Below, in pieces: positions 342 through 13,002 of a stretch of 64,000 bases of DNA. Both the position numbers and the translations under genes were made by a program. The DNA is from Escherichia phage Ecwhy_1. Position 1 is the first letter of the stretch. Each line of letters starts with the position of its first letter. The notes below the pieces were generated by a model. That model had not been told where the DNA came from. It saw nothing but the letters and a program-made list of their open reading frames with translations, and did not search any database. The stretch lies in sequence record MH791411.1; one strand, written 5' to 3'.

Positions 342-743
342 TTACAGTCCTAAGATAGTGCGTGCTTCGTTACGTTCCGTACACAGCTGCATGATGTGAG
401 CAAGTAAGTCCTTGCTAATGTATCCGGTGTTCATAGCTTCACGAATAGATACATCATAAGCACCGAACCCAGTGCGAACGATACGCACATCATTCAGGTT
501 AGTATTATAGATACCGCCGAGATCAACGGCTTCGAATACTACATCAACAGAATATTCATTGTTGCCATCGTGGAAGTTTTCCAGTGCAATAGTATTGGAA
601 ACCGCCCAACGTTTGCAGTTTCCAATGATGCGGCACTGTTCCGGTTGGATAGTGCCATTACTTACAGCGTACTCCAGTGCATCTTTACCAAAAGTCCGAG
701 CCAGTACTAAAACGTCAGCGAAGGAAGTGATTGAGAAGGTCAT
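342..743 (-). CDS. hypothetical protein (133 aa)
   Basis: Track ORF 342-806 trimmed to internal ATG preceded by SD AAGGAG; sigma70-like promoter + 5'UTR hairpin upstream. Confidence 0.6.
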   Translation of the reverse strand: MTFSITSFADVLVLARTFGKDALEYAVSNGTIQPEQCRIIGNCKRWAVSNTIALENFHDGNNEYSVDVVFEAVDLGGIYNTNLNDVRIVRTGFGAYDVSIREAMNTGYISKDLLAHIMQLCTERNEARTILGL

Positions 744-828
744 GATAAAACTCCTTAATTTAGGAGGGAGAACCATTTCCCCCTCTCTATGTAAAACATT
801 ATACATGAATCTAAGTACTATGCAAGTA

Positions 829-1164
829 CTATTTCATTTTAATACCTGGATTCAGGTAGCGGTGAGATCCATATTCTGGATCGGTTTCGGTCCAGTACTG
901 TAAATCTATAGTACCTTTAGCGTTAATCTTATCTACCAGCTTATTCATCTTAGCGTATACTACATCAGCATCGATGCGTTTAAAGCCAGTGGCTTTAGTG
1001 AAGTAGTAGTGATTTGCTTCACTATCATTCAGGATGTACCGAGAACCGTCAGCCGTTTGTGCGACAATGAATGAGAATGATACTTTACGATCAAGGCCGT
1101 CGCAGTATACAGATGAATCATTGGTACGGATGAAAGCTTTAACGATAGCGATTGAAGTAGTCAT
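829..1164 (-). CDS. hypothetical protein (111 aa)
   Basis: ORF; SD AGGAG. Confidence 0.6.
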   Translation of the reverse strand: MTTSIAIVKAFIRTNDSSVYCDGLDRKVSFSFIVAQTADGSRYILNDSEANHYYFTKATGFKRIDADVVYAKMNKLVDKINAKGTIDLQYWTETDPEYGSHRYLNPGIKMK

Positions 1165-1314
1165 TTTGAATCTCCTAACTTTGTGGGCCGTCGCACCATT
1201 GCCGCCCTACGAGATACATTATTGCAGTACTGATATACTTTGTCAATACTTTTTTATTAATAGTTTTAGTTCCACCAGCAGATAGTTACTCACCGTTATT
1301 AACTATATATTTTG

Positions 1315-1400
1315 GATACACTTATGCACCCTGTGGGCTAGTTTTTGTCTATGCGTATATAATAGCAAAGGGACTGACCTGAGTCAATCCCTTTTTTTAT
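1315..1400 (-). repeat. repeated terminator-promoter-leader module (copies also at about 4065-4160, 7340-7430, 11345-11440)
   Basis: GATACACTTATGCACCCTGTGGGC..TATATAATAGCAAAGGGACTGACCGGAGTCAATCCCTTTTT. Confidence 0.55.
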
Positions 1401-1409
1401 TCTTTTTTG

Positions 1410-1610
1410 TTAGATGATTCTCCAATCATCAACGATCATGGTAAGATACCGAACCAGTGATTCGAGTGATTCGTGTTCTCGATAGTCTGACGCACCGCCA
1501 GCGGTACAAGTACAGCCGATTAAGCCGTTTTGCAATTCCTTAATCTGTACATCGATAAGGTTGGCTTTAGCTTCTTTCAGTACTTCAACCAGGGCGATAG
1601 CGATAGACAT
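1410..1610 (-). CDS. hypothetical small protein (66 aa)
   Basis: ORF; SD GGAG; promoter TTG..TATAAT + hairpin GGGGGAATAGTTCTCCC upstream. Confidence 0.55.
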   Translation of the reverse strand: MSIAIALVEVLKEAKANLIDVQIKELQNGLIGCTCTAGGASDYREHESLESLVRYLTMIVDDWRII

Positions 1611-1700
1611 AATGTTTTACTCCAAACTATTGGCGGGAGAACTATTCCCCCGCTCTATGTAAAACATTATACATTACTGGTTAGTACTGTCAAATAGTTT

Positions 1701-1958
1701 TTATGAAATATCTTCGATGTAGTCGGCCCATTTCATTTTTTCAGTACTGTCAATGGCTACCGGATTATTTGGATCAAACCATTCACCATTACCGCAATAC
1801 ATACCAACGGCTACGGTTTTATAGCCATCCTGGGCCGTACACCACGACATTGCACGATAGATATGGCCTTTAACTGGTTGTAGTACTGGTAACGTTTTAT
1901 GGTCTTCTACGTAGGCCATCGCTTGATGATTTACCCGATATTGTGTGAACTGTTCCAT
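1701..1958 (-). CDS. hypothetical protein (85 aa)
   Basis: ORF; SD AAGGGGAAAC; TTGACA-N17-TGTAAT upstream. Confidence 0.6.
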   Translation of the reverse strand: MEQFTQYRVNHQAMAYVEDHKTLPVLQPVKGHIYRAMSWCTAQDGYKTVAVGMYCGNGEWFDPNNPVAIDSTEKMKWADYIEDIS

Positions 1959-2034
1959 TATGTTTCCCCTTGTAGTTAGTAAAGTTATTACATCAGTACT
2001 ATCAAGCTATGTCAATAGTACTGAAATAAAACTT

Positions 2035-2259
2035 TTAGATTAGATTATTGAGGCCGTCAATGGTAGACTCACTTTCTTCTTTCTCCCATTGTCGGTAGTA
2101 CTTCCATGCTTCATGATAGGTGGCGATTAGTTCATCTTTTTGATCCTGGTTACATGCCAGTACTGAATCACGGTGAGCGGTGTTATAGATAGAATCGAAT
2201 GATTTCTTCTCTTCTGCCAGGTTAGCTACTTCCCGCATCAGTTCATCAAAGTTAGCCAT
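2035..2259 (-). CDS. hypothetical protein (74 aa)
   Basis: ORF; SD AAAGGAG; TTGCAT-N17-TATAAT then perfect hairpin GGGGGAGATATCCTCCCCC. Confidence 0.6.
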   Translation of the reverse strand: MANFDELMREVANLAEEKKSFDSIYNTAHRDSVLACNQDQKDELIATYHEAWKYYRQWEKEESESTIDGLNNLI

Positions 2260-2326
2260 TTTATTACTCCTTTTAGTGGGGGAGGATATCTCCCCCTATG
2301 CAAAACATTATACTTTGTTTTAGTTA

Positions 2327-2590
2327 TTATGCAAGTACTTTTTTCATATAAACATTAAATTCTACACCGCCGTAACCTTCCACGATGATATGTTTTGCGT
2401 TATCACGTTTGCACATAGTGAAACCATCGTTTACGTGTTTTGCATTTTCCAGGGCGACATCACCGATAGCGGCACATACGGCACTAATAACAGTATTCCG
2501 CAAAGTACTGGTATCATTGGCGGTCATAGTAGTTTGCAGTACTACGTTGTCGTATACGTGTGCATTGATAGTGATTTCGATAGTGTTCAT
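2327..2590 (-). CDS. hypothetical protein (87 aa)
   Basis: Track ORF trimmed to MNTIEI start with SD CAGGAG; promoter+hairpin upstream. Confidence 0.6.
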   Translation of the reverse strand: MNTIEITINAHVYDNVVLQTTMTANDTSTLRNTVISAVCAAIGDVALENAKHVNDGFTMCKRDNAKHIIVEGYGGVEFNVYMKKVLA

Positions 2591-2677
2591 GGTGTATCTC
2601 CTGGACTTGAGGGGAAACCATTTCCCCCTCTCGATATAAAACATTATACGTTAATCTAACTACAATGCAAGTACTTT

Positions 2678-2869
2678 TTAAATTTTATTTCCGATATAGT
2701 CCGGCATGTTCTTTTCAGTCATACGCTTTGCTAATGTCTGCATATGGCTTATAGCGTTCAAGGTGTCTTCCTCCAGGGATGAATCGAGATAATCAGGATC
2801 ATTCTTCACCTTGCAATGATTATGATAGCGTAGTACTGCCAGTACTTTTTTAACTTCTTCTACTGTCAT
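2678..2869 (-). CDS. hypothetical small protein (63 aa)
   Basis: ORF; 4-nt overlap with upstream gene suggests coupling. Confidence 0.5.
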   Translation of the reverse strand: MTVEEVKKVLAVLRYHNHCKVKNDPDYLDSSLEEDTLNAISHMQTLAKRMTEKNMPDYIGNKI

Positions 2870-3138
2870 AATAAGTACCCCACTTCGTTAGCTTTCAGGT
2901 TAGTATCAATCATCAGTGGATTTTTGTAGTTCACAAAACGAGTAGTTTTCTCGATAGCGAATCCCATATAATCCAGCTTACTAACAGTACATTCATTCTT
3001 AAAAACTTCTTTCGCTGCATCGATGGCTGATTGCATGGATAACCGACCATCTAAATTAATGTTTCCAAATGATCCACCAGCAGAAGTAGGATTACCGTTC
3101 ATATCTTTAATGATCATAGTAGCGGAGTAGCTGGACAT
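2866..3138 (-). CDS. hypothetical protein (90 aa)
   Basis: ORF; SD AAAGGAAAC; TTGACA-N17-TATAAT + hairpin GGGGAGAACTATTCTCCCC upstream. Confidence 0.6.
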   Translation of the reverse strand: MSSYSATMIIKDMNGNPTSAGGSFGNINLDGRLSMQSAIDAAKEVFKNECTVSKLDYMGFAIEKTTRFVNYKNPLMIDTNLKANEVGYLL

Positions 3139-3163
3139 AATTTTGTTTCCTTTTATTGGTGTG

Positions 3164-3182
3164 GGGAGAACTATTCTCCCCT
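3164..3182 (-). promoter_or_regulatory. 5'UTR hairpin GGGGAGAA-CTA-TTCTCCCC (example of recurring G-rich leader hairpins)
   Basis: Perfect 8-bp inverted repeat between -10 and SD; no T-run after it on the transcribed strand. Confidence 0.55.
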
Positions 3183-3193
3183 TGATGTAAACT

Positions 3194-3222
3194 ATTATAC
3201 AGTACTAAAATACTTTGTCAAA
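3194..3222 (-). promoter_or_regulatory. sigma70-like promoter TTGACA-N17-TATAAT (example of about 40 similar units)
   Basis: Reverse strand reads TTGACAAAGTATTTTAGTACTGTATAAT; AGTACT in spacer. Confidence 0.6.
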
Positions 3223-3227
3223 TACTT

Positions 3228-3635
3228 TTATTCGCCCATATAGATTAGATTATCATCGCCTACATAGGGATCGCAAACGTTGATTTCTTCACAGTACTTC
3301 GTGAATACATCGCCATAGTGACCTAAACCACGATCCCAAAAACCAGTTCCGTGACCTTCGCGGGTAAGGAACAGATCATGACCAGCTTGCTCATAACCGT
3401 AATCAATAAACATACCGCGAACTACTTCCAGATCATTACCGTGTTTCTCAATGAAGCGAGAACATGCAATCACCGCCGCTTGACGTGCTTCATCAGATAA
3501 CTCATAATCTTCCAGGTAATCGCCGTTATCATTATGTACAGTACTGAATTGCATAGCTTCAATGTAAGCTACAACCATTGCAGCATGATTTTTATCGTTA
3601 GTGATGTTCCGAGCGAGATTAGTAGTAGTAGACAT
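3228..3635 (-). CDS. hypothetical protein (135 aa)
   Basis: ORF; SD AAGGAATAAAATC; promoter+hairpin upstream. Confidence 0.6.
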   Translation of the reverse strand: MSTTTNLARNITNDKNHAAMVVAYIEAMQFSTVHNDNGDYLEDYELSDEARQAAVIACSRFIEKHGNDLEVVRGMFIDYGYEQAGHDLFLTREGHGTGFWDRGLGHYGDVFTKYCEEINVCDPYVGDDNLIYMGE

Positions 3636-3718
3636 GATTTTATTCCTTATTGTATTGGGGAGAACTATTCTCCCCTTGATGTAAACTATTATACAGTACT
3701 GATATACTTTGTCAATAC

Positions 3719-3940
3719 TTAATTACGTTTAAAATGATATGTGCCTTTATCATCCTGTACGCCCCATACTGATTTACCATCAACACCAGTGAAGCCGGAT
3801 TGTAATTCAATATGGAAACCATTATTATCAACTACAAAAACTTTTTTATTTTCATCCCGATAACATTGATATTCTGAATCAACATTAAAGGCCGCATCAT
3901 TCAGACGATTGGAAGCGTAAATGCAAGTCATTGTAGTCAT
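3719..3940 (-). CDS. hypothetical protein (73 aa)
   Basis: Track ORF trimmed to MTTMTC start; promoter+hairpin upstream. Confidence 0.55.
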   Translation of the reverse strand: MTTMTCIYASNRLNDAAFNVDSEYQCYRDENKKVFVVDNNGFHIELQSGFTGVDGKSVWGVQDDKGTYHFKRN

Positions 3941-4164
3941 GATTTTATTCCTTAATATACCAGGGAGAACCATTCCCCCTCTCGATATAAAACATTATAC
4001 TTGATTCTAAGTACAATGCAAGTACTTTTTTAAAAATAGTTTTCAGTACTGAATACTTATATAATAGATACACTTCCGCACCCTATGGGTCAGTGAGTTA
4101 TCTCTCAATGGATATATAATAGCAAAGGGACTGACCGGAGTCAATCCCTTTTTTTAATCTTTTT

Positions 4165-4749
4165 TTATCGTGTTACCTTACTTGCTGCCACATCACGCTT
4201 TTTATAGTACTGATTCCAGATATTGCTGGTTAAACCGTAATCAAGTACTTTAATAAGTCCATTACGATCCTGGCCGATATTCTGTTTTCTGATATCTCTT
4301 ATCGTTAGTGTTGATAATGTATCATCAACGTGTTGTAGTGCATCAGCAAAGCGGTGCTGGCGTTCGATTGCATTACGTTTAATATTGTACTTTAATTCAT
4401 TGCACGCGTTTACGTGCTTCACACTGCCTTTGCTTGCAGTACTCAACCGATCCATAACGATAAACATATTATCAGGATCGCATAAATGCATATGCACCTT
4501 TGCAAAGTACTGTTTCAATTGAGGGCGGTCATAGTCTAAAAAATTCCATACCTTACATTCAGTTTCATTTTGTTCTACACCCGCATCACAATTCGCGACC
4601 TTAATCACTAACCGATCATTTAAAGCGAAAACTATACGGGAAGAACCAGCACCGATGATCTCCAGGCCAGCTAACCGACAAGCTGAAAGGATCTCTTTGT
4701 TGGTTTCCATTTCTGACAGTGTACGGATGAATTTAGTATAATTACGCAT
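4165..4749 (-). CDS. protein kinase-like protein (194 aa)
   Basis: Trimmed to MRNYTKF start with SD AAGGAG; motifs IGAGSSRIV (Gly loop), VIKV (Lys), DIRKQN (catalytic-loop-like), DYG (DFG-like). Confidence 0.5.
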   Translation of the reverse strand: MRNYTKFIRTLSEMETNKEILSACRLAGLEIIGAGSSRIVFALNDRLVIKVANCDAGVEQNETECKVWNFLDYDRPQLKQYFAKVHMHLCDPDNMFIVMDRLSTASKGSVKHVNACNELKYNIKRNAIERQHRFADALQHVDDTLSTLTIRDIRKQNIGQDRNGLIKVLDYGLTSNIWNQYYKKRDVAASKVTR

Positions 4750-4780
4750 TGCATGTTCTCCTTGAGTTAATGAAACTATA

Positions 4781-5023
4781 TTACAGTACTTTACTATCAA
4801 TGGCAACTACTTTTTTAACATTAACGGCGTGGATCACTTCCTTCGTGTTTTTAGTACTGAATACTTTCGCCGCTCCTTGTTCGACCGTGATACGATAGCG
4901 ACCATTAACATCAACCATATTAATAAAGTCCGGCGTGCTGAATGGTGTTGTTTTACATTTGAGTACTGTTAACAGTTCCACCAGCGATGTAGTTTCTTTG
5001 ATACGTTTTTCTAAAGTAATCAT
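4781..5023 (-). CDS. hypothetical protein (80 aa)
   Basis: Trimmed to MITLEK start; TTGACA-N17-TACTAT and SD GGGGGAAAC upstream. Confidence 0.55.
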   Translation of the reverse strand: MITLEKRIKETTSLVELLTVLKCKTTPFSTPDFINMVDVNGRYRITVEQGAAKVFSTKNTKEVIHAVNVKKVVAIDSKVL

Positions 5024-5080
5024 TTTGTTTCCCCCGTGTTGGTATGTACATATAGTACTAAAACATTTGAGTACTGTCAA

Positions 5081-5299
5081 TTAGATAATATTATATTTCT
5101 TAAAATAAAATGCGTCCTGTGTTGGTTGATACTCGATACCGTTACCGTTATTGACTTCAACTAATAAACCTTTGTCAATTAGTTTTTTAATAGTACGATA
5201 CCCTTGTTGAAAATTGGTAAAATGTGAATCATTACGAAAGGTATAACCGTGCTTAACTGCTTCATCAATAGTTTTCTTTTCGATTTTAGATAATTTCAT
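5081..5299 (-). CDS. hypothetical protein (72 aa)
   Basis: Trimmed to MKLSKI start; promoter/leader near-identical to that of 4781-5023. Confidence 0.55.
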   Translation of the reverse strand: MKLSKIEKKTIDEAVKHGYTFRNDSHFTNFQQGYRTIKKLIDKGLLVEVNNGNGIEYQPTQDAFYFKKYNII

Positions 5300-5352
5300 T
5301 TTGTTTCTCCCGTGTTGGTATGTGTACATAGTACTAAAACAATTGAGTACTG

Positions 5353-5607
5353 TCAACGTGATATTAGTTTTATTTTCTTATTGTATTGTTGATGCTCATA
5401 AAGGTTTATCTTTCCTGTGTTCTCGATTACTATCCTGTTGTTAGTGTCCACGTCGATTACACGCAGTTTCCCGTTGCTTAACTTCCTAGGTAATAGGTTA
5501 CCATTAATAAACTCATTAGCAAGCTGTACGGCCTTTGTGATGATTCTCTGAGGTGCTTTATAGTGTACCCGTAAGATGTTATCTTTATATAGTTGAACCT
5601 TAATCAT
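5353..5607 (-). CDS. hypothetical protein (84 aa)
   Basis: ORF; SD AGGA; follows an intrinsic terminator. Confidence 0.55.
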   Translation of the reverse strand: MIKVQLYKDNILRVHYKAPQRIITKAVQLANEFINGNLLPRKLSNGKLRVIDVDTNNRIVIENTGKINLYEHQQYNKKIKLISR

Positions 5608-5620
5608 TTTGTTTGTCCTA

Positions 5621-5647
5621 TAAAAAAGGCGGGAACTGATCCCGCCG
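5621..5647 (-). terminator. intrinsic terminator
   Basis: Hairpin GGCGGGATCAGTTCCCGCC + TTTTTTAT on - strand. Confidence 0.6.
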
Positions 5648-5668
5648 TGTTGTTAGTACTGCAAGTTA

Positions 5669-6064
5669 TTAGATAACCTGGCGGCGTTTACTGTATACTG
5701 TTACACGATTACCCTTACGATCATGTCGGATCTCTTTCTGGTTGCGAATCAGTTCACTTGGACGCTTAAGGTTTGCCAGGTGATCCGCGTGAGTCCATGC
5801 GGTGTGGTTTACCTGTACTTTGATATCAGAATCAGCGATAAACTCATCTTGTGCGTCAAGTATTGCCGCCAGCATATCCGCTCGTTTTAGTTCTGCTGCT
5901 GTCAGTACTGGCTCAGGTGAATTCACAATATCAGAGATTTCTTTGAACTGTACGGCCCAGCGTTGACCTTTCGTTGCATCTTTGCCCATGTCTTTAAATG
6001 CTGCTCCTTCCTCGCGTGCAACAATACGGGCAGCTTCACGGGTAGCGTAGAATTTAGTAATCAT
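5669..6064 (-). CDS. hypothetical protein (131 aa), paralog of 19079-19345
   Basis: ORF; shared motifs KFYATREAARIVAR..FKDMG and DRKGNRVTVY; TTGACA-N17-TATAAT upstream. Confidence 0.6.
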   Translation of the reverse strand: MITKFYATREAARIVAREEGAAFKDMGKDATKGQRWAVQFKEISDIVNSPEPVLTAAELKRADMLAAILDAQDEFIADSDIKVQVNHTAWTHADHLANLKRPSELIRNQKEIRHDRKGNRVTVYSKRRQVI

Positions 6065-6159
6065 GGTATACATCCTATTAGTTGAGTTAGTACTACAAGT
6101 TAGAGTCTATTATAAAGTACTATCTGGGCAATGTCAAATAGTACTTTAAATGGATTCTA

Positions 6160-6483
6160 TTACATGTCTTTCTTACGTTTTACATCGTGGTAGCGAACTG
6201 TTATTTCTTTGTTGATCTCTTCCTCGATGCGATGAATAACTTTTTCTTTCGGGTTGAAACCTATAACGGTTTCTTTAATGATCTCCAAGCCCGTGTATTC
6301 GCCTTGTGTACCGTAACCGTATGTAAAGGTTTCGTGTCCCAGGTCTTCCCAGCGGTCGCCAATTAACGCAGACACGTAGCAAGAGTGGTAAGTATTGCCG
6401 TGTGAATCAGTCCACCGATTAACGTTAATGTCAAAGGAGGTTACAATTTTCAATTCTACTTTCTGGGCAAGGATCATAGCCAT
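6160..6483 (-). CDS. hypothetical protein (107 aa), paralog of 13003-13326
   Basis: ORF; shared motif RWTDSHGNTYHSC..FTYGY; promoter+hairpin upstream. Confidence 0.6.
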   Translation of the reverse strand: MAMILAQKVELKIVTSFDINVNRWTDSHGNTYHSCYVSALIGDRWEDLGHETFTYGYGTQGEYTGLEIIKETVIGFNPKEKVIHRIEEEINKEITVRYHDVKRKKDM

Positions 6484-6570
6484 TTTTATTTCTCTCTCTT
6501 TGTTAGGAGGGGAACCATTCCCCTCGCTTGATGTAAACTATTATACAGTACTAAGATACTTTGTCAATAC

Positions 6571-6753
6571 TTATTTTTTGGAAAGTTTACGCATTAATTC
6601 TACGCTTTCTTGTGAACGTTTTGCTACCTGGCAAGCTGTATGGGCAGTAAACATTTTTGTATAGTCTGACGCTTTGCCACCGAACCGAGCGGCACGTTCA
6701 CGGGCACTTGGAACTAATACTATTTCTTTATTACAGATAGTGCACTTAGCCAT
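6571..6753 (-). CDS. hypothetical small protein (60 aa)
   Basis: Trimmed to MAKCTICNKE start; promoter/leader duplicated from the 6160-6483 gene. Confidence 0.5.
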   Translation of the reverse strand: MAKCTICNKEIVLVPSARERAARFGGKASDYTKMFTAHTACQVAKRSQESVELMRKLSKK

Positions 6754-6841
6754 TTTTATTTCTCTCTCTTTGTTAGGAGGGGAACCGTTTCCCCTCACTT
6801 GATGTAAACTATTATACAGTACTAAGATACTTTGTCAATAC

Positions 6842-7117
6842 TTAAGTATTGTAAATGTCGTGAATAGTGATAAAGTTTTTACGACCGTAAACATGTAAAT
6901 CAGTATCAATGTAGTGCTTATCAAGTACATCCTCGACGCTTAAAGACGTGTCGTGAATATCTTCATAAAATTGTGGATCAACAATCGTGCTTAAGTCATC
7001 TGGCGTTAACTTATCGTTAAGGCATTGAACCGCCTGGATATCTGCTTCACGTTTCCATTGTTCCAGATTAGTAGTCAGTACTTGCTCGATTTCGTTAGCT
7101 GTAAGTAAAGTCCGCAT
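6842..7117 (-). CDS. hypothetical protein (91 aa)
   Basis: ORF; SD AAGGAAAC; tandem promoters with long conserved leader upstream. Confidence 0.6.
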   Translation of the reverse strand: MRTLLTANEIEQVLTTNLEQWKREADIQAVQCLNDKLTPDDLSTIVDPQFYEDIHDTSLSVEDVLDKHYIDTDLHVYGRKNFITIHDIYNT

Positions 7118-7185
7118 TTTAATGTTTCCTTATCAGTGGTTGATGTAAGTATTATACTCGTTTACTTTCTATTGTCAAACTATTT

Positions 7186-7262
7186 TATCAGGGGAGTTTT
7201 TCGTATGTCTTACTCCTGGACTACTTAACGGGGTTACTTATTTCGTTCCCCGTCCTGATGTA
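7186..7262 (-). promoter_or_regulatory. conserved ~75-nt structured leader, copy 1
   Basis: Near-identical to 18400-18478, related to 14990-15060. Confidence 0.5.
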
Positions 7263-7432
7263 AAACATTATACTTGATTCTAAGTACAATGCAAGTACTT
7301 TTTTAAAAATAGTTTTCAGTACTAGCCACCAGCAAACAATAGATACATTTATGCACCCTGTGGGCTAATTTGTTTCTATGCGTATATAATAGCAAAGGGA
7401 CTGACCGGAGTCAATCCCTTTTTCAAATATTT

Positions 7433-7582
7433 TTAAACTTCTTTCGGGTTGCGATATGTGATAGCGTTCGGGTACATTTGTTTAATGTTATTCCATGCCT
7501 GGTTAACATTATAACCACTTGATCGAATCAGTTGGTTATTACCGACACCTTGAAACACTACTTCAAATAAGAATTCTTTCAT
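7433..7582 (-). CDS. hypothetical small protein (49 aa, not in ORF track)
   Basis: ATG overlaps stop of upstream gene (ATGA); SD GAGG. Confidence 0.35.
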   Translation of the reverse strand: MKEFLFEVVFQGVGNNQLIRSSGYNVNQAWNNIKQMYPNAITYRNPKEV

Positions 7583-7752
7583 GCTTTCACCTCTCGATCT
7601 GCTTTGCCTTTACGCCAGGCCGTTGCTAATTGTTCGCGTTGCCATAAGTCGAGTGATACGTAAAGTTTTGCATTATCACCCTTCGGATATTCGCCAGTAG
7701 TACCAATCCGATAAAACAGATCTTTCAGTACTGTTAATTCTACCTGGACCAT
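7579..7752 (-). CDS. hypothetical small protein (57 aa)
   Basis: Trimmed to MVQVEL start; promoter+hairpin upstream. Confidence 0.5.
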   Translation of the reverse strand: MVQVELTVLKDLFYRIGTTGEYPKGDNAKLYVSLDLWQREQLATAWRKGKADREVKA

Positions 7753-7839
7753 TATACTTTCCTCTTTGTTAGGAGGGGAACTATTCCCCTTCCGATATAA
7801 AACATTATACACTTTATTCAGTACTGTGCAAGTACTTTT

Positions 7840-8052
7840 TTAATCTTTCAGCCAATGATCCTGAATGAATTTTTCACCGGAACCTTGCTGCATTGATTGT
7901 AACAGACGTTCGCGATGAGCGGCGGCGAATTGCTCAGTACTATGCGTTACACCTGGTTGATATCTGGATTCACCATTTGGGGCGATGTATTGTACATCCC
8001 ACGGTTTTTCGTTAGTATCAGACCATTTACGAACGATTAGTTGACCTTGCAT
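7840..8052 (-). CDS. hypothetical protein (70 aa)
   Basis: ORF; SD AAGAGGAAAG; promoter + hairpin GGGGAGAATCATTTCTCCCC. Confidence 0.6.
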   Translation of the reverse strand: MQGQLIVRKWSDTNEKPWDVQYIAPNGESRYQPGVTHSTEQFAAAHRERLLQSMQQGSGEKFIQDHWLKD

Positions 8053-8135
8053 TTTTCTTTCCTCTTAGTGGGGAGAATCATTTCTCCCCTTCATGTAAAC
8101 TATTATACAGTACTGGATTGCATTGTCAATAGTTT

Positions 8136-8459
8136 TTATTCACCTTGTTTGAATATAGTTTTCTCCATTGATTCCATGATTGCAACCAATACAGCATGGA
8201 TCTCACTTAACGCGGCATCACTAAAAGCATTAATGAATAGGCAATCATTCTCGCGAATATTTTTAATGTACTTATCAGCAGTGGTTGCGAATTCATTCAA
8301 CGGCAGATCAAATGCTTTATCCCATAATGGATGGCGTAACTGTAACAGTACTGGATTATCACGATCACCAGGGGAAAACGTACCAGTGATGAAACATACG
8401 CCCGGAATACTTTCGAACTGGCAACGGACTTCCTTTGTGATAGTAGTATGAATGTACAT
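8136..8459 (-). CDS. hypothetical protein (107 aa)
   Basis: ORF; SD AGAGGATAAC. Confidence 0.55.
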   Translation of the reverse strand: MYIHTTITKEVRCQFESIPGVCFITGTFSPGDRDNPVLLQLRHPLWDKAFDLPLNEFATTADKYIKNIRENDCLFINAFSDAALSEIHAVLVAIMESMEKTIFKQGE

Positions 8460-8486
8460 TTATTGTTATCCTCTATTAAATTAATA

Positions 8487-8675
8487 TTACAGTTTATGAA
8501 TTAATTCTTTATCTAAGCGATAGCGTACATTATTAATGGTAACAGCATTATTTTTAATGCTACGCTGTACGGGTCCACCAGCAATAACAAACGTTGCTTT
8601 ATTGCCCCGAACAATGATAGCACTTCCAGGATTACCGAAATCATCTTGTACTAAAATACTTGATAAGTTTTCCAT
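8487..8675 (-). CDS. hypothetical small protein (62 aa)
   Basis: ORF; SD AAGAGGAAAT; promoter+hairpin upstream. Confidence 0.55.
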   Translation of the reverse strand: MENLSSILVQDDFGNPGSAIIVRGNKATFVIAGGPVQRSIKNNAVTINNVRYRLDKELIHKL

Positions 8676-8753
8676 TTTTATTTCCTCTTAGTAGGGGAAG
8701 ATGTTTCCCCTTGATGCAAGTACTATAACAGTACTGAAAACTAAATGCAAGTA

Positions 8754-9110
8754 CTATGATAAAATCATGATAGGATATTCACTATCTATCAATACCTCGA
8801 ATCCGAAACCTTCGTACCATTCTTTAAGATTAAAGGCGTTATCTTCTCCCGTATCGCATTCTAAGATGATACAATCTGAATCATCGGCGGCATCAATAAA
8901 GGCATTCATTAATTCGTTACCTTCACCATTGCCCCGACTATCAGGATCAACATAAAGAGAATCAATAAACGCTACACGGTCATAATCAAGATCCGGTGCA
9001 ATGATTCCACGTTTAACAAACCAGTACTGCAATTGTGCTACTTTGCCCTGTACTTGATAGCCAGTGATCTCGCCATTGTCAGTAGTACGCGTGATATGTT
9101 GTATTCCCAT
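8754..9110 (-). CDS. GNAT-like acetyltransferase (118 aa), tentative
   Basis: Motifs RGNGEGN (R-x-x-G-x-G) and NAFNLKEWYEGFGF resemble GNAT motifs A/B; SD GAGGATAG. Confidence 0.45.
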   Translation of the reverse strand: MGIQHITRTTDNGEITGYQVQGKVAQLQYWFVKRGIIAPDLDYDRVAFIDSLYVDPDSRGNGEGNELMNAFIDAADDSDCIILECDTGEDNAFNLKEWYEGFGFEVLIDSEYPIMILS

Positions 9111-9173
9111 GATTACTATCCTCAGTTAAGATATAAAACATTATACACTATCTTTCAGTACTGTCAATACTTT

Positions 9174-9431
9174 TTATCTCATAGATCTATGCCAACAATT
9201 ACGCGGATCTCTTTTAAAAGTACTATCATGATCCTCCTGGCAAGTAATACAATACATGCACCCTATAACGGCCTGGCGTCGATTCTCAGGGATTTTATCG
9301 CCGCAGTCGAGGCAATGTACAAGTGATTCTCTTTGTGCGTTAATTTGCTTTCTAGCGTGGTTAACGGCGGCCTGAATCACTGCATGAATCTCGTCTTGTT
9401 CGGCCCCGTCTTTCGCGTATCCTACTGCCAT
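9174..9431 (-). CDS. TraR/DksA-like C4 zinc-finger protein (85 aa)
   Basis: C-x2-C...C-x2-C with CGDKIPENRR; SD GAGG. Confidence 0.55.
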   Translation of the reverse strand: MAVGYAKDGAEQDEIHAVIQAAVNHARKQINAQRESLVHCLDCGDKIPENRRQAVIGCMYCITCQEDHDSTFKRDPRNCWHRSMR

Positions 9432-9589
9432 TATTTTAACCTCATTATAAAAATACTATAGTACTGTAATGCTACAATAATACTACTAGTGTTTATCTTA
9501 TTCAAACCATATGATACTACATATCCACCAGCATTACCACGAATAGTAACGCCTTTGTACTGTCTATATAAATTCAACTGCGTATATTG

Positions 9590-9668
9590 CCTTTGATCAA
9601 GAATTGATCAGAATTATACGCCTTATGCTAAATTGATCCAGTACTTTTTTGATCATTTATTGATCGAT
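9590..9668. repeat. cluster of five TTGATC motifs (GATC sites)
   Basis: TTGATCAAGAATTGATCAGAA..AATTGATCC..TTTTTTGATCATTTATTGATCG. Confidence 0.5.
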
Positions 9669-9760
9669 ATTATATAGTTACATTTGTGCACCCTATGGGT
9701 TAGTGACGTTCTCGTCTTGATGTAAGTATTATGCCAGTACTGGAGGATATTGTCAATAGA

Positions 9761-9964
9761 TTATTTTAATTTTTTTCTGTCATTGATTAATGCTTTCAGT
9801 ACTATACTAATAACTTGCAATGATTCATCAATGACAATGAAATTATTCTCTTTCATTAGATGATAGTTACCATTGATTGTATATTCTAACGAGTACTGTT
9901 TACGTTTAATTTTTGATAATGTTTCTATTTGTTTTTGTACTGATTTCATGCTAATCATTGTCAA
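9761..9964 (-). CDS. hypothetical small protein (67 aa)
   Basis: ORF; weak SD AGGA. Confidence 0.45.
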   Translation of the reverse strand: MTMISMKSVQKQIETLSKIKRKQYSLEYTINGNYHLMKENNFIVIDESLQVISIVLKALINDRKKLK

Positions 9965-10064
9965 ACGTCCTGTAACGCATTCTAACGAGATAAACGGTTT
10001 AGTACTGGCATTGTATAGGGTAAATGATTAAAGCCCACCAGCGTTAACCAGTGGGCTATAATAT

Positions 10065-10208
10065 TACATCTTGCGGATAATCTTAACAGTATCTTTCACC
10101 GATTTACCGTTTTGCTGACATTGCTCGATCATCGCGTATTGTTCTGCGGTCAGATCCTCGCCAGTTTTTGCCAGTACTGCGTCGATGAATGAATCCAGTG
10201 CGATCATT
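10065..10208 (-). CDS. hypothetical small protein (~47 aa, not in track)
   Basis: TTGACA-N17-TATAAT, SD AAGAGAGAAAT, ATG; coordinates approximate. Confidence 0.35.
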
Positions 10209-10297
10209 TTATTTCTCTCTTAGGTTAAGTTAACTACTGTTTATAAAACTTATTATACAGTACTATCAATCTATGTCAATAGTACTGGTAATATATT

Positions 10298-10477
10298 TTA
10301 GCGGTAGTCGTCGTATGCTTTATTCACCTGGCGAATATAACTTTCAAAGGCTTCGTCTACCGTTTCATACTCCCGAACATAATCACCATATGAAACTACA
10401 TACATACCTTTTTGATCTTCAAACGTCATGATGATAGAATCCAGACCAACGATTTCAGTTTTTGCGATGATAGCCAT
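10298..10477 (-). CDS. hypothetical small protein (59 aa, not in track)
   Basis: TTGACA-N17-CATAAT, SD AAGGAA, ATG. Confidence 0.4.
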   Translation of the reverse strand: MAIIAKTEIVGLDSIIMTFEDQKGMYVVSYGDYVREYETVDEAFESYIRQVNKAYDDYR

Positions 10478-10560
10478 TTTTTAATTCCTTAGTAGTGTAG
10501 TTGATAAAAGTTATTATGTCAGTACTATCAAACTATGTCAATAGTACTGTGATAATATTT

Positions 10561-10773
10561 TTAGTTAATGATAGTCAGTGTAAAATTGTAATCACCGCAG
10601 CGATATAGCACGTTATTCCCAAATGTCCCAACTAATCGCACATCACACAAAACGCCGGTTTTTTCTTTTACTTCCTTGATACTTGTAACTCCTGTAATAT
10701 CTTTATTAAAGTATTCATGATCTGAAAATAAAACTTGTTTTGCATTTTTTAATTTCGACCGGATATTAGCCAT
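10561..10773 (-). CDS. hypothetical protein (70 aa)
   Basis: ORF; SD AGAGAGAAAAC; promoter + hairpin GGGGAGAAAAACTTCTCCCC. Confidence 0.55.
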   Translation of the reverse strand: MANIRSKLKNAKQVLFSDHEYFNKDITGVTSIKEVKEKTGVLCDVRLVGTFGNNVLYRCGDYNFTLTIIN

Positions 10774-10869
10774 TTTGTTTTCTCTCTCTGTTAGTGGGGA
10801 GAAGTTTTTCTCCCCTTGATGTAAACTATTATACAGTACTATAATCTATTGTCAAACTATTTTTTTATA

Positions 10870-11211
10870 TTATTCGAAATCTTCTGGACCGGACTGATAA
10901 TCATCTTCACCGTATGCACTTTCTAACCGCTCGCCAGTGTGATCATCAGTTAGTGAGTCATCCTCATAGTTCACGTCTACGCCAGTGATGTAAAACTGGC
11001 TATCGTCTGGATCATTGAAATTAATTTTCTGTATGTTTACAATAACTGTATTGATGCCCAGGACACCGCCATCAGCCGTTACAAAGTACTGATAGTTTTC
11101 GCAACCGCCTGAATTGAAACCGTAATTAATTTCGGCCCGACCATCATTTAAACGCAGTGCCTGGGCGATGATTTCGTTTTCAAAGTTAGATTGAGCAATT
11201 GAGATAGTCAT
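10870..11211 (-). CDS. hypothetical protein (113 aa)
   Basis: Trimmed to MTISIA start; promoter+hairpin upstream. Confidence 0.6.
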   Translation of the reverse strand: MTISIAQSNFENEIIAQALRLNDGRAEINYGFNSGGCENYQYFVTADGGVLGINTVIVNIQKINFNDPDDSQFYITGVDVNYEDDSLTDDHTGERLESAYGEDDYQSGPEDFE

Positions 11212-11663
11212 GATTTGTTTCCTTATTACCAGGGGAAACCGTTTCCCCCTCTCGATGTAAAACATTATACGCTTATTGAGATAGTTTGCAAGTACTTTCT
11301 ACAAATACTTTTAAAATAGTTTTCAGTACTCAATACTCATATAATAGATACACTTATGCACCCTGTGGGCTAGTGAGCTATCTCTCAATGAATATATAAT
11401 AGCAAAATGGCTGACCGGAGTCAACCACTTTTTTCATTTATTTTTAGCTTTTAGAATCGCCGCCTTTCGCGTCATGCCTTGCTTGATGTATTCTTGTACT
11501 TTCGCTTTACGTGCATTCGCTTTATTTGCTTTCGTAAATGCCGAACAACTTTTATAGTTTAAACCTGTTGGATTCATTTAAATCACCATAAAGAATAGAT
11601 AGGTTACTAACAACGCCGCGATCAATGCACCGACCAGGGCCGAACTATAGTAAGCTAATGTTT

Positions 11664-11816
11664 TCATTTTTTAGCCTGAAAGTAATGTTTAATTTGAGCG
11701 GCGGTCAGTGCACAATTACGCAGGAAGTTTTCTGTATAACTGCGGCGAGTACTGAAAGAGAATTGACCTTTGCCGTTACCGATAGTAACATCAAACCGAG
11801 CGTTGTATTGTTTCAT
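11664..11816 (-). CDS. hypothetical small protein (50 aa)
   Basis: Trimmed to MKQYNARF start; SD AGGAGAATC; promoter+hairpin. Confidence 0.45.
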   Translation of the reverse strand: MKQYNARFDVTIGNGKGQFSFSTRRSYTENFLRNCALTAAQIKHYFQAKK

Positions 11817-11897
11817 TTTGATTCTCCTGTTATTGGGGAGAATCATTTCTCCCCTTCATGTAAAACATTATACAGTACTAAAAACTAATTGCAAGTA

Positions 11898-12044
11898 CTA
11901 TTTTTTAGATTTACGCAAACTTTCTACCATCTCAGGAGTAAGGCCCGGCGGGTAGGAAACTACTTCATCAACGAAACGTAAAGGGAATACCCCAGCGAAA
12001 GGTGAACGTGCTTTCTTAGTATTACTCTTTTTTGATGCTTTCAT
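11898..12044 (-). CDS. hypothetical small basic protein (48 aa, not in track)
   Basis: SD AAGGAATATG; promoter+hairpin upstream. Confidence 0.4.
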   Translation of the reverse strand: MKASKKSNTKKARSPFAGVFPLRFVDEVVSYPPGLTPEMVESLRKSKK

Positions 12045-12113
12045 TTCATATTCCTTAATTAGTGGGGAGAATCATTTCTCCCCTTCATGTAAAACATTAT
12101 ACGCGTTTAAAAA

Positions 12114-12323
12114 CTAATTGCAAGTACTATTTGAAAGTAAATGCTCATACGCTGCATTAACTACGTTTTCAATAACCGACTGTACAGAAAGATCCCCCAC
12201 GTCCTGGCTATAGTAGAAATCGCTTACAGTGGTGTCATCGTATGCAAATACTTTACCAGGTACTGCATCAATCACATACATATTAACCTTTAAGATGTCG
12301 ATCTTATCCTGTACAGTAAGCAT
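12114..12323 (-). CDS. hypothetical protein (69 aa)
   Basis: ORF; SD AAAGG. Confidence 0.5.
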   Translation of the reverse strand: MLTVQDKIDILKVNMYVIDAVPGKVFAYDDTTVSDFYYSQDVGDLSVQSVIENVVNAAYEHLLSNSTCN

Positions 12324-12328
12324 ATTAA

Positions 12329-12601
12329 TTAACCTTTTAAGTACTGGCTTAAGTAGTCTTGTTGATCTTCGGTGATTGCAGCCATCTTCCCTAGTACTGG
12401 ATTAATGATATAATCCCCTGTAACGTCCTGTAACGCATTCTCAGGCGGTTTAACGGCTGGGGTAGCCATAGCCATCGCCTGGACTTGTTCGACGCTATAA
12501 CGCTCATATAGGCGGCATTCTTCCGGTGTTAACATAGCATCAATGCGTTTCATTGGTTTAATGATGCTTTCAACTTCATTCAGTACTTGATTAACGTTCA
12601 T
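12329..12601 (-). CDS. hypothetical protein (90 aa)
   Basis: ORF; weak SD. Confidence 0.55.
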   Translation of the reverse strand: MNVNQVLNEVESIIKPMKRIDAMLTPEECRLYERYSVEQVQAMAMATPAVKPPENALQDVTGDYIINPVLGKMAAITEDQQDYLSQYLKG

Positions 12602-12652
12602 GGTATAATCCCCAATATAAGCGGCCTGAATCGACCGCTAACGATGTTTTGA

Positions 12653-12922
12653 TTAATAGGTGTATGGTTGACGTTCAAACAATGATTGCACGTTGTACGC
12701 CCCACTAATGGGCTTTGCTGGTAAATCAATTTTATATTGCTCACGCTTAAAGATAATAAAACGGCAATTGTTTTTAACATCAAAATTGATTGAACGTTCC
12801 AGTAGTTTACCATCGTGCACAAATACAAGATAACCGCTCGCTACTTGTTTTGTAGTACTGGTTGCAACCATAGACCGCCGAACATGTGTACCTGCGTCGA
12901 TTAAAGTACTGATATTTTTCAT
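12653..12922 (-). CDS. hypothetical protein (89 aa)
   Basis: ORF; SD AAGAGGAACG; preferred over overlapping 12598-12828. Confidence 0.55.
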   Translation of the reverse strand: MKNISTLIDAGTHVRRSMVATSTTKQVASGYLVFVHDGKLLERSINFDVKNNCRFIIFKREQYKIDLPAKPISGAYNVQSLFERQPYTY

Positions 12923-13002
12923 TATACGTTCCTCTTAAGTTAATTTAATTTCTTTCCCCTATGCAGACACTATATCAAAGTATCTGCATAAAGTAAAGCT
13001 AA

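Follow-up and report, generated by a model that had tools for sequence, protein, structure and literature searches.

Promoter-leader modules in the terminal repeat of an Asteriusvirus jumbo coliphage probably double as recombination joints between small-gene cassettes

The DNA analysed here (hereafter the window) is a 64,000-nt stretch of Escherichia phage Ecwhy_1 (MH791411.1), which is ~99.9% identical to phage fEgEco12 and comes from a jumbo coliphage of the PBECO4/121Q/G17 group of Asteriusvirus that bears a direct terminal repeat (DTR). Position 1 of the window aligns to position 90 in the records of G17, WPEC3 and WPEC5, the left end of the genome lying ~89 nt outside the window start, and the fEgEco12 record has its first position at what is window position 21864. 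The same region is annotated as 'Direct Terminal Repeats' in the record of vB_Ec-M-J, and a DTR of 20,993 bp was confirmed in fEgEco12 by PhageTerm and restriction digests (PMC13070987). All ~58 genes of the array that occupies the DTR read leftwards (Table 1). They are for the most part orphans and presumably belong to an early or host-takeover class.

Promoter modules, called as hexamers with at least 5/6 matches each located 15-75 nt upstream of an ATG, precede 37 of the 58 DTR genes, and 27 of these 37 also have a leader hairpin. Twelve perfect (12/12) TTGACA-16/17-TATAAT sites lie on the minus strand within 20 kb, and 25 of the 29 minus-strand matches to the promoter regular expression in the 64 kb fall inside the DTR. 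The modules are 60-100 nt long, much alike, cover ~27% of the DTR, and consist of an A-rich stretch with A-runs upstream of the -35, a promoter close to the host sigma70 consensus (TTGACA or TTGCAA-16 nt-TATAAT), a conserved GTTTTACATC-like start region, usually a hairpin, then the Shine-Dalgarno sequence (SD) and the ATG. The promoters are probably active, with early timing. We did not find these modules described in the literature on Asteriusvirus, Rak2-like and rV5-like phages, a search that cannot prove that no description exists; a list of 18 RpoD-like promoters has been published for phage CBB.

The leader hairpin is an 8-bp GC-rich stem in the 5' UTR. In most leaders the stem starts 12-13 nt after the -10, which places it within the transcribed leader, and minimum-energy folds leave the SD unpaired. 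Leaders were aligned by anchoring on the loop, with padding to equal length, the loop being picked from Watson-Crick pairs only. The alignment comprised 64 distinct leaders drawn from six genomes, and 97.3% of its stem cells were paired, a figure to be read with the bias toward pairing that comes from anchoring on each leader's best hairpin. Compensatory changes were found at 6 of the 8 stem pairs, with 68 doubly changed cells in these 64 leaders, counts that are not independent because the leaders are interrelated. None of 500 shuffles reached this level of pairing and covariation. The stem cells that departed from Watson-Crick pairing comprised 28 G-U in the mRNA sense against 9 A-C, a tally that is neutral as to strand because only Watson-Crick pairs were used to pick the loop; the excess of G-U over A-C thus points to selection on RNA rather than on DNA structure. 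At the sequence level no U-tract follows the leader stems, which continue with ACTAAGAGG, AATAACAGG, TGGTAATAAGG and similar sequences, and no leader hairpin was among the terminator-like sites listed for the coding strand. The leader hairpin is thus predicted not to be a terminator. Our best guess is that it acts as a 5'-UTR element stabilising the mRNA or insulating the ribosome-binding site. An Rfam search of positions 1-23000, with E up to 1, returned two sub-threshold chance matches only. Some GenBank annotations start two of the genes at an ATG that lies in a hairpin loop (342-776 and 16283-16534); we rejected these start codons and corrected the genes to 342-743 and 16283-16504, thereby flagging annotation errors in which a hairpin-loop ATG was mistaken for a gene start.

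Table 1. Position of the terminal repeat, the gene array and the module-flanked genes in the window
Feature	Position	Strand	Remark
Direct terminal repeat (DTR), Asteriusvirus	1..~21864	.	Genome's left end ~89 nt outside the window
Array of 58 small genes	743..20210	-	37 with own sigma70-type promoter; 27 of the 37 with leader hairpin
Pair 1 downstream gene, 80 aa, no family	4781..5023	-	
Pair 1 module copy a: TTGACA-17-TACTAT, leader, SD; hairpin absent	5024..5080	-	
Pair 1 upstream gene, 72 aa, between both module copies	5081..5299	-	
Pair 1 module copy b	5300..5356	-	~90% identical to 5024-5080
Pair 2 downstream gene, 107 aa, phrog_6246	6160..6483	-	Paralogue of 13003-13326
Pair 2 module copy a: TTGACA-16-TATAAT, hairpin ~6505-6528, SD	6484..6573	-	
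Pair 2 variable cassette gene, 60 aa, phrog_8738	6571..6753	-	
Pair 2 module copy b, hairpin ~6775-6799	6754..6844	-	97% identical to copy a
Representative leader hairpin GGGGAGAA-ATGA-TTCTCCCC	11835..11854	-	12 nt after -10, promoter of gene 11664-11816
Pair 3 downstream gene, 107 aa, phrog_6246	13003..13326	-	
Pair 3 shared block a: upstream gene end, TTGACA-17-CATAAT, leader start; without hairpin or SD	13350..13426	-	
Pair 3 variable cassette gene, 70 aa, phrog_35559	13416..13628	-	
Pair 3 shared block b	13642..13718	-	76/77 nt identical to block a
Replacement hot spot between two conserved modules	16535..17721	-	Four genes in the window
Pair 4 downstream gene, 62 aa, no family	16589..16777	-	
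Pair 4 shared block a, -10 to SD	16786..16822	-	-35-like TGGACA within upstream coding sequence
Pair 4 upstream gene, 60 aa, no family	16817..16999	-	
Pair 4 shared block b	17008..17044	-	37/37 nt identical to block a; full promoter reaches 17065

An initial annotation of the window had singled out four pairs of adjacent genes that were said to share a near-identical promoter, leader and SD while coding for unrelated proteins. All four pairs were present where it had placed them, with shared blocks of 37-90 nt at 90-100% identity, and the module phenomenon extends beyond them over the whole terminal repeat. The composition that had been described, promoter plus leader plus SD, holds for pairs 1 and 2. 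The block of pair 1 covers 57 nt at ~90% identity, from TTGACA through the last base before the ATG, and that of pair 2 covers 90 nt at 97% identity and takes in the upstream gene's stop codon, both promoter hexamers (-35 and -10), the hairpin of the leader, and the SD. In pair 3, contrary to the initial annotation, the SD is not shared: the block (77 nt with one mismatch) reaches from the final codons of the gene upstream, across the promoter, to ~17 nt into the leader. The -35 lies outside the 37-nt block of pair 4, which is 100% identical. Past the ATG, the coding sequences within a pair are at random identity (25-34% ungapped over the first 87 nt). BLASTP detected no similarity between the two proteins of each pair, and the classifiable ones fall into different PHROGs (6246 versus 8738 in pair 2, 6246 versus 35559 in pair 3), so that the description of the partners as unrelated stands. 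None of the eight pair proteins had a match in Pfam. Neighbouring modules account for 5 of the 16 module pairs with at least 80% identity (permutation p = 0.0002), as measured with a semi-global 100-nt identity matrix. The background of this matrix is high, and pairs 1 and 4 escape it because their intergenic spaces are short; it served for this neighbour test only. The mean identity across all module pairs is far below that of the near-identical ones.

Near-identical modules preceding unrelated coding sequences had been taken to mean that gene cassettes are swapped behind them. The comparison with related genomes that the initial annotation had proposed was run and bears this out, revealing gain, loss and replacement of genes at the modules. 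The gene flanked by both module copies is polymorphic within Asteriusvirus in three of the four pairs (2, 3 and 4). Gene 6571-6753 is missing in 121Q, UE-S1, TH47 and phAPEC6; gene 13416-13628 is present in ~20 and absent from ~16 of ~38 Asteriusvirus records; and genes 16589-16999 are missing in fEgEco12 and JNE01. No polymorphism was found at pair 1 among the relatives examined, gene 5081-5299 being conserved throughout. Genomes without the flanked gene have one module copy at the junction. In 12 of 20 indel or replacement events identified against five relatives, the alignment blocks overlap by 31-103 nt of module homology, meaning that a single module copy was left at the junction. The remaining 8 events have little or no junction homology, and some of them are replacements that end at gene boundaries, outside the modules, indicating that further mechanisms are at work, for instance illegitimate recombination or exchange with divergent alleles. 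Five genes that relatives carry at the variable sites lack any homologue within the 64-kb window.

Replacement is seen at the hot spot listed in Table 1, which is occupied by a single unrelated 54-aa gene in fEgEco12, by two genes in JNE01 and by others again in G17 and 121Q. The promoter located upstream of gene 17392-17631 precedes the unrelated 54-aa gene and a different hairpin in fEgEco12, whose sequence at this promoter matches the window right up to the leader hairpin and not beyond. Exchanged units tend to extend from a leader or hairpin as far as the following one. Three resolved cases show transfer of a hairpin together with its SD and coding sequence, behind a promoter that stayed in place. 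Mobility of the module alone, in the manner of a MITE, was rejected because every indel of at least 150 nt contains coding sequence.

Cassettes of the DTR are also found outside Asteriusvirus. Four short loci of phages W70 and A7_1 (Vequintavirinae) and of muut and PHB05 (Justusliebigvirus) contain nucleotide homologues of 12 of the 58 DTR genes, at 68-91% identity but not in the DTR order, and whole cassettes recur, reordered, at 84-95% nucleotide identity in phages of the Vequintavirinae and Stephanstirmvirinae. The whole cassette 6571-6753 is 86-88% identical to its counterparts in Justusliebigvirus phages. In PHB05 its coding core is ~95% identical, as read off the alignment, and the high-identity block (93% over 253 nt) spans the hairpin and SD, the coding sequence and the next promoter and stops at the next hairpin. 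Gene 13416-13628 has 84-86% identity to sequences of the Vequintavirinae phages W70, A7_1 and A5-4. In the inter-family blocks, the promoter of the downstream gene travelled with the coding sequence. By our classification, ~9 of the 16 ends of strict inter-family matches lie inside modules, and ~4 more lie at most 30 nt from a gene end. The DTR as a whole has matches in 223 records, many of them from ~140 kb phages, and a control piece from outside the DTR (30-38 kb) matches only jumbo Rak2-like phages (42 records). Since the same kind of unit occurs in coliphages of the Vequintavirinae and Stephanstirmvirinae, the cassettes appear to cross these lineages as well.

We consider it likely that the DTR modules are self-contained expression units that double as recombination joints, through which cassettes are gained, lost and replaced, also between phage families. 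Because the units are closely alike, they could also provide homology at many scattered sites. If two of them underwent general homologous recombination, the intervening gene or genes would be deleted, inserted or replaced, with expression of the neighbours undisturbed; the two units could lie in one genome (a small circle looping out or re-integrating), in different copies of a concatemer, or in phages that co-infect a cell. A cassette inserted inside a unit would become flanked by two near-identical units, which would produce adjacent genes with the same promoter and leader and unrelated proteins. From the junctions we infer that such recombination would proceed by general homology rather than by a dedicated enzyme. 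A bolder reading, which we put forward tentatively and think somewhat less probable than its opposite, is that the promoter-hairpin units form a 'linker language' common to at least three unrelated coliphage lineages, which would share one inter-family pool of early-gene cassettes, ready for expression and exchanged from hairpin to hairpin in co-infection, the hairpin being both an mRNA element and a preferred crossover point.

Two simpler origins of the repeated modules have to be weighed. If strong early promoters had merely converged on the sigma70 consensus, nothing would be duplicated or portable, and all modules do indeed have near-consensus hexamers and purine-rich SDs. The initial annotation had itself named similarity limited to generic consensus as the result that would count against it, but the aligned identity includes non-consensus positions in the spacer, the upstream region, the start region and the rest of the leader, the arms and loops of the hairpin and the last codons of the upstream gene; moreover, near-identical modules cluster as neighbours, with a far lower mean identity overall. 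Identity outside the consensus positions refutes convergence, to which we give practically no credence. The long identical blocks recur in dozens of independently sequenced genomes, which also makes an assembly artefact unlikely. Tandem duplication of gene-plus-promoter units, followed by fast divergence of the coding parts only, could draw on the existence of paralogues in the DTR (6160-6483 and 13003-13326, 39%; 17392-17631 and 19432-19671, 66%; 5669-6064 and 19079-19345, 35%). These true paralogues are non-adjacent and lie behind different module types, whereas the members of the pairs have no detectable similarity and belong to different PHROGs, and the >90% identity of their DNA is down to the random level within a few bases of the ATG. 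Close homologues of the variable genes sit in other phage families, arguing for import rather than local divergence, and we regard this scenario as extremely improbable.

The manner of exchange leaves two further alternatives. Concerted evolution alone, in which gene conversion homogenises neighbouring promoters and the presence or absence of cassettes results from separate ordinary deletions, predicts at short range what is seen, namely that near-identical modules are mostly neighbours; adjacent copies could indeed be kept alike by conversion, and pair 1 is duplicated yet not polymorphic. Nevertheless, cassette-less genomes hold exactly one module copy through which both flanks align (overlaps of 45-103 nt), which is not what random deletion would leave, and the same cassettes with their module edges are found reordered in other phage families. 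We therefore judge conversion plus deletion very unlikely as the sole explanation. A site-specific, structure-directed process is unlikely too, although it deserves somewhat more weight. A dedicated enzyme (an integron-like recombinase, a structure-specific nuclease or a homing endonuclease) would here act on the leader hairpin in the form of folded DNA or a cruciform, which would make the repeat a cassette array of the integron type. In three resolved cases the junction does lie at the hairpin or between the -10/start region and the hairpin (both ends in PHB05, one end in muut, the fEgEco12 replacement). A helper recombinase was also left open by the authors who described the promoter-stem-loop cassettes discussed below (PMC2839356). 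Against such a process, the junction point is variable, with some junctions between the -35 and -10 of hairpin-less modules, as when the pair 3 cassette is aligned with W70 and A7_1, and others at gene ends. Hairpin-less modules (pairs 1, 3 and 4) are also duplicated, and those of pairs 3 and 4 are polymorphic. The bias of G-U over A-C favours selection at the RNA level, and junction homologies of 31-103 nt suit ordinary homologous recombination.

Exchange at module joints would offer a concrete mechanism for the turnover of the small orphan early genes of giant phages, which are likely anti-defence or host-takeover factors, and unrelated coliphage families drawing on one cassette pool would bear on the rate at which counter-defence genes spread. 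For engineering, the joints could be used as natural landing pads for the insertion of genes into jumbo phages, and the modules make up a compact set of natural promoter-leader parts that are predicted to be very strong.

Several known systems resemble the DTR array in part. The pre-early (first-step-transfer) region of phage T5 is a long terminal repeat and likewise packs small host-takeover genes with very strong promoters for host RNA polymerase, those of the DTR being predicted; its sequence is unrelated to the Asteriusvirus DTR, and we know of no repeated promoter-hairpin linker or cassette polymorphism described for it. Integrons also arrange single-gene cassettes in tandem with hairpin-forming repeats between them, subject to gain, loss and reordering. 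Integron cassettes are promoterless and are moved by an integrase via folded attC sites, whereas those of the DTR carry their own promoters (37/58 genes) and have junctions at variable positions across the module; no integrase is known for the DTR cassette array. Morons, reported from lambdoid and other phages, are said to be autonomous genes with their own promoter and terminator inserted between conserved genes. They are likewise single accessory genes with their own expression signals, variable among otherwise collinear genomes, but are isolated, bounded by promoter and terminator and devoid of a repeated linker, whereas the DTR holds a continuous array of dozens of cassettes in which the linker supplies the homology. 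At the level of the mRNA, the leader hairpins recall the ompA-type 5'-terminal hairpins of E. coli, reportedly stabilisers, as both are stable hairpins near the 5' end of the transcript and upstream of an unpaired SD. In the DTR leaders, a start ~7 nt after the -10 would leave 4-6 unpaired nt ahead of the hairpin, more than is optimal for protection and borderline for a classical 5'-end stabiliser of the ompA kind.

The closest known system is the promoter-early stem-loop (PeSL) cassette of T4-type phages (Arbiol et al. 2010, PMC2839356; Comeau et al. 2014, PMC4122927), for which the principle of modules acting as joints has already been published. Both place short composite units in the intergenic space before small orphan genes; each unit combines an AT-rich upstream stretch, a strong sigma70-like promoter and a G-rich stem-loop and ends, on its 3' side, with the SD and start codon of the gene that follows. 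Both cluster in the most plastic, orphan-rich part of the genome and contain the junctions of indels and replacements between relatives, the crossovers reported for PeSLs lying between the -10 and the ATG, as in the Asteriusvirus DTR. PeSL mini-circles excised by recombination between flanking elements have also been described (PMC2839356). The PeSL stem-loop immediately precedes the promoter and terminates transcription effectively, whereas the DTR hairpin lies 12-13 nt downstream of the -10, in the 5' UTR, and lacks a U-tract in the sequence-level test. Moreover, the carrier here is a Rak2-like rather than a T4-like phage, the array fills a 21-kb direct terminal repeat, and its cassettes are common to two other phage subfamilies at the nucleotide level. 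The DTR modules would thus extend the PeSL idea beyond T4-like phages, with a differing architecture in which a leader hairpin takes the place of the terminator.

Window positions 4000-8000 matched Escherichia phage fEgEco12 at 99.9% identity; matches also covered about 50 jumbo coliphages (350-385 kb) of the genus Asteriusvirus, in the PBECO4/121Q/G17 group. Window position 1 falls on nucleotide 90 of the G17, WPEC3 and WPEC5 records and window position 21864 on nucleotide 1 of the fEgEco12 record, the direct terminal repeat (DTR) of fEgEco12 measures 20,993 bp as confirmed by PhageTerm and restriction digests (PMC13070987), and the vB_Ec-M-J record labels the same stretch 'Direct Terminal Repeats'; window positions 1 to ~21,860 are therefore the DTR. 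Of the 58 small genes it contains (30-200 aa), almost all lie on the minus strand and only a few carry a name in relatives: Ser/Thr kinase, GNAT acetyltransferase, DksA-like zinc-finger protein and 'spackle'. Repeats with an 8-nt period (CGTCTAGC, CATCCAGC, CGTTTAGC and similar; repeat family D11) form an array at 20962-21113, within a ~1.4-kb stretch without called gene (20743-22166). The array sits within the DTR at ~750-900 nt from its inner boundary and is a candidate signal for packaging, for replication or for the boundary itself. Just inside that boundary (~22167-26500), the organization switches abruptly to tightly packed, overlapping genes of 60-70 aa that lack intergenic promoters. 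A DNA repeat among them, with 204-nt copies at 22569 and 23152 that share 74% identity (family D17), suggests a tandem paralogue family.

The initial annotation had proposed that four pairs of adjacent genes share near-identical promoter, leader and SD but code for unrelated proteins, as if gene cassettes were swapped behind a portable expression module. Nucleotide alignment confirmed the observation, as each pair yielded near-identical blocks (see table) and the likeness was not confined to the generic promoter consensus. The promoter, leader and SD are all shared in pairs 1 and 2, whereas the block of pair 3 reaches from the final codons of the upstream gene across the promoter to nucleotide 17 of the leader, leaving the SD outside, and that of pair 4 extends from the -10 through the SD, leaving the -35 outside. 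Coding identity within pairs dropped to 25-34% over the first 87 nt, BLASTP did not find similarity between the proteins of each pair, and those that could be classified fall into different PHROGs. No Pfam domain was found in the pair proteins.

Coordinates of module blocks, variable genes and associated features (window positions)
Feature	Coordinates	Strand	Length and identity, or other members
Pair 1 blocks (genes 4781-5023/5081-5299)	5024-5080, 5300-5356	minus	57 nt, ~90% identity
Pair 2 blocks (genes 6160-6483/6571-6753)	6484-6573, 6754-6844	minus	90 nt, 97% identity
Pair 3 blocks (genes 13003-13326/13416-13628)	13350-13426, 13642-13718	minus	76/77 nt identical
Pair 4 blocks (genes 16589-16777/16817-16999)	16786-16822, 17008-17044	minus	37/37 nt identical
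Long gaps with composite element	1165-1409, 3941-4164, 7118-7432, 9578-9760, 11212-11433, 18334-18760, 20128-20700	minus	
Gene starts placed within a hairpin	342-776, 16283-16534		also fEgEco12 g55, G17_00002
Further single-gene events of the same type	2327-2590, 3228-3635, 11898-12044, 15803-16039, 17392-17631		
Sites of extra genes in relatives	1193-1260, 7136-7190, 11847-11904, 17644-17723		

The four pairs are the most similar members of one large module family. A repeat search returned families with up to 28 copies and, by a uniform rule (at least 5 of 6 matches per hexamer, 15-75 nt ahead of the ATG), a promoter is present at 37 of the 58 DTR genes, usually as TTGACA or TTGCAA, a 16-nt spacer and TATAAT. 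A stable leader hairpin accompanies 27 of these 37 promoters. The coding strand carries 12 perfect (12/12) consensus sites, and 25 of the 29 minus-strand regex promoter matches in the 64 kb lie within the DTR. Module types include TTGCAA with GTTTTACATCGAGA-GGGGGAA..., TTGACA with AGTTTACATCAA-GGGGAGAA..., and the hairpin-less TTGACA-17-CATAAT of pair 3; those of pairs 1 and 4 are also hairpin-less. Module pairs with an identity of 80% or more number 16, and 5 of them are physical neighbours (permutation p = 0.0002).

Three sets of paralogues reside in the repeat: 17392-17631 and 19432-19671 (66% amino-acid identity), 5669-6064 and 19079-19345 (35%), and 6160-6483 and 13003-13326 (39%), the latter being one gene family behind different module types, the reverse of the reported pattern. 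Alignment of seven long intergenic gaps revealed a common composite element. It combines an A-run with a 12-bp hairpin, AAAGGGATTGACTCCGGTCAGTCCCTTT, which the G17 record labels a terminator and which contains a TTGACT-17-TATTAT promoter; ~25 nt beyond follow a near-invariant box, AGCCCACAGGGTGCATAAGTGTATC, that could be a small RNA or an operator, and then an ordinary promoter-hairpin module with an extended upstream part. The palindrome AGTACT occurs 131 times in 1-20900 (6.7 expected) and 155 times in 20901-64000 (14.7 expected), at 8-35 copies per 4-kb bin over the whole window, with CAGTACTG (68 copies) as its favoured context. Within the first 20.9 kb, roughly half of all AGTACT copies fall in coding sequence and the rest at fixed places of the modules, namely on the -35 (AGTAC-TTGCAA), directly ahead of the -10 (AGTACT-G-TATAAT) or farther upstream; AGTACT could be a binding or modification site.

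The leader hairpin consists of an 8-bp stem and a 3-5-nt loop, and its stem starts 12-13 nt past the -10, which places it within the transcript. Among 64 distinct leaders, collected from six genomes (the window and five relatives), with the loop position picked from Watson-Crick pairs only, 97.3% of the cells were paired and 6 of the 8 stem pairs displayed compensatory double changes (68 cells), a covariation that was matched by 0 of 500 shuffles and lost upon shifting the partner columns, in an alignment fitted to the best hairpin of each of these mutually related leaders. Non-Watson-Crick cells included 28 G-U in the mRNA sense versus 9 A-C; stem position 4 alone held 32 GC, 22 AT, 15 GT and 0 AC. 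This pairing and G-U signature indicates that the leader element is a conserved RNA hairpin on the coding strand. The SD is unpaired in the folded leaders, no U-tract was found 3′ of the stems, none of the hairpins was among the terminator-like sites of the coding strand, and no Rfam family matched. Many loops read ...GAAATGA/G..., whose ATG is sometimes in frame with the downstream gene, and ORF finders and some GenBank annotations place gene starts within the hairpin. For the gene at 342-776, the choice of start gives 435 nt versus 402 nt in WPEC5; the true starts of the two window genes concerned are likely 743 and 16504, each with an SD ahead.

Alignment of the DTR to those of fEgEco12, G17, WPEC5, 121Q and JNE01 uncovered 20 indel or replacement events. 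At 12 of them, the genome without the segment shows an overlap of 31-103 nt between the two alignment blocks; a single module copy is left there, through which both flanks align. Such one-copy junctions bear the apparent footprint of recombination between two directly repeated modules. The other eight exhibit little or no junction homology, hence module recombination is not the sole process. The pair 2 gene 6571-6753 is absent from 121Q (overlap of 103 nt), UE-S1, TH47 and phAPEC6, and the pair 4 genes 16589-16999 from fEgEco12 and JNE01 (46-51 nt). The pair 3 gene 13416-13628 is absent from fEgEco12, G17, WPEC5 and JNE01 (80-95 nt); in the whole collection, ~20 records have it and ~16 have a single module instead. 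Pair 1 is conserved across all genomes examined. Since five genes that relatives carry at the event sites lack homologues within the 64-kb window, these are gains or losses rather than relocations. The variable gene of each polymorphic pair lies between the two near-identical modules, the arrangement that insertion by crossover within a module would produce. The promoter upstream of 17392-17631 is common to the window and fEgEco12 through '...GTATAATACTTTATATCGAG', past which hairpin, SD and gene all differ, the same promoter preceding a 79-aa protein in the window and an unrelated 54-aa protein in fEgEco12. This retained promoter with its exchanged gene, together with the 12 module-homology junctions, supports cassette swapping as initially proposed. 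The surrounding stretch 16535-17721 is a hot spot in which strains hold four, two, one or different genes.

Matches to the DTR extend to 223 phage records, far above the ~50 Asteriusvirus genomes, while non-DTR positions 30000-37999, used as a control, matched only jumbo Rak2-like phages (42 records) and no ~140-kb phages. We compared loci of W70 and A7_1 (Vequintavirinae) and of muut and PHB05 (Stephanstirmvirinae, Justusliebigvirus), two subfamilies that share with Asteriusvirus no common rank below class. These four short loci are laid out like the DTR, with small same-strand genes separated by gaps of ~85-95 nt that hold promoter, hairpin and SD, and 12 of the 58 window genes have nucleotide homologues there (68-91% identity) in a different order. 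The variable genes of pairs 2 and 3 are among the 12, the pair 2 cassette matching PHB05, SD2, inny, ECGD1 and ALITA at 86-88% and the pair 3 cassette W70, A7_1 and A5-4 at 84-86%. In PHB05, a high-identity block (93% over 253 nt; ~95% in the coding sequence, as read off the alignment) begins at the hairpin 3′ arm and SD of the 6571-6753 homologue, continues through the coding sequence, stop codon and next promoter to 'TATAAT..TTTACATC', and fades at the next hairpin; the downstream boundary is the same in muut. By strict scoring and our own classification, ~9 of 16 interfamily match ends lie inside modules and a further ~4 no farther than 30 nt from a gene end, with no single fixed position.

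Thirteen records labelled 'Campylobacter phage' (~146 kb; e.g. MG065645, MG065689) match DTR cassettes in 17559-19763 at ~86% and in this resemble the Stephanstirmvirinae phages of E. coli; the host given for them seems doubtful, or they may be contaminants of a Campylobacter phage collection. Outside the DTR, the annotation of relatives places several repeated 'regulator of chromosome condensation' (RCC1-like) genes in 30000-38000, a region that is highly mosaic in Asteriusvirus, being at least 80% covered by only 3 of 42 records.

We infer that the units are early promoters read by host RNA polymerase and that turnover would be driven by general homologous recombination between them, either by intramolecular loop-out and re-integration, by unequal exchange of concatemer copies or by exchange in co-infection. 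The hairpin may then act as a leader element, stabilizing the mRNA or insulating the ribosome-binding site. A minority alternative is that the hairpin itself directs an enzyme-mediated exchange, as three junctions located at the hairpin would suggest; yet junction positions vary, hairpin-less modules behave alike, and the G-U bias is in the RNA sense, all of which weighs against it.

No description of the modules was found in the searchable Asteriusvirus papers: the word 'promoter' is absent from those on fEgEco12, Sharanji and UE-S1, Korf 2019 says nothing of regulatory cassettes in its section on G17, and the paper on the Rak2-like phage CBB gives only 18 RpoD-like promoters with UP elements. 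The closest known system is the promoter-early stem-loop (PeSL) cassette of T4-type phages, composed of an AT-rich region, a sigma70-like early promoter, a G-rich stem-loop, an SD and the ATG. Such cassettes are concentrated in hyperplastic regions, bring about indels and replacements among close relatives and give rise to mini-circles; their crossovers were mapped to the stretch from the -10 to the ATG (PMC2839356, PMC4122927). The DTR system will not surprise phage genomicists in principle; it is clean and testable, and it bears on the spread of early anti-host genes. More distant analogies are offered by morons, the T5 pre-early repeat and integron arrays. The present units work the same way as PeSLs but miss two of their defining traits. 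In a PeSL, the stem-loop precedes the promoter and acts as a terminator, whereas the hairpin described here lies downstream of the promoter, in the leader, and its sequence lacks a terminator tail. Further differences are the phage lineage and the location in a terminal repeat. The system is a PeSL-like recombination linker with a leader hairpin, located in a jumbo-phage terminal repeat and common to several phage families.
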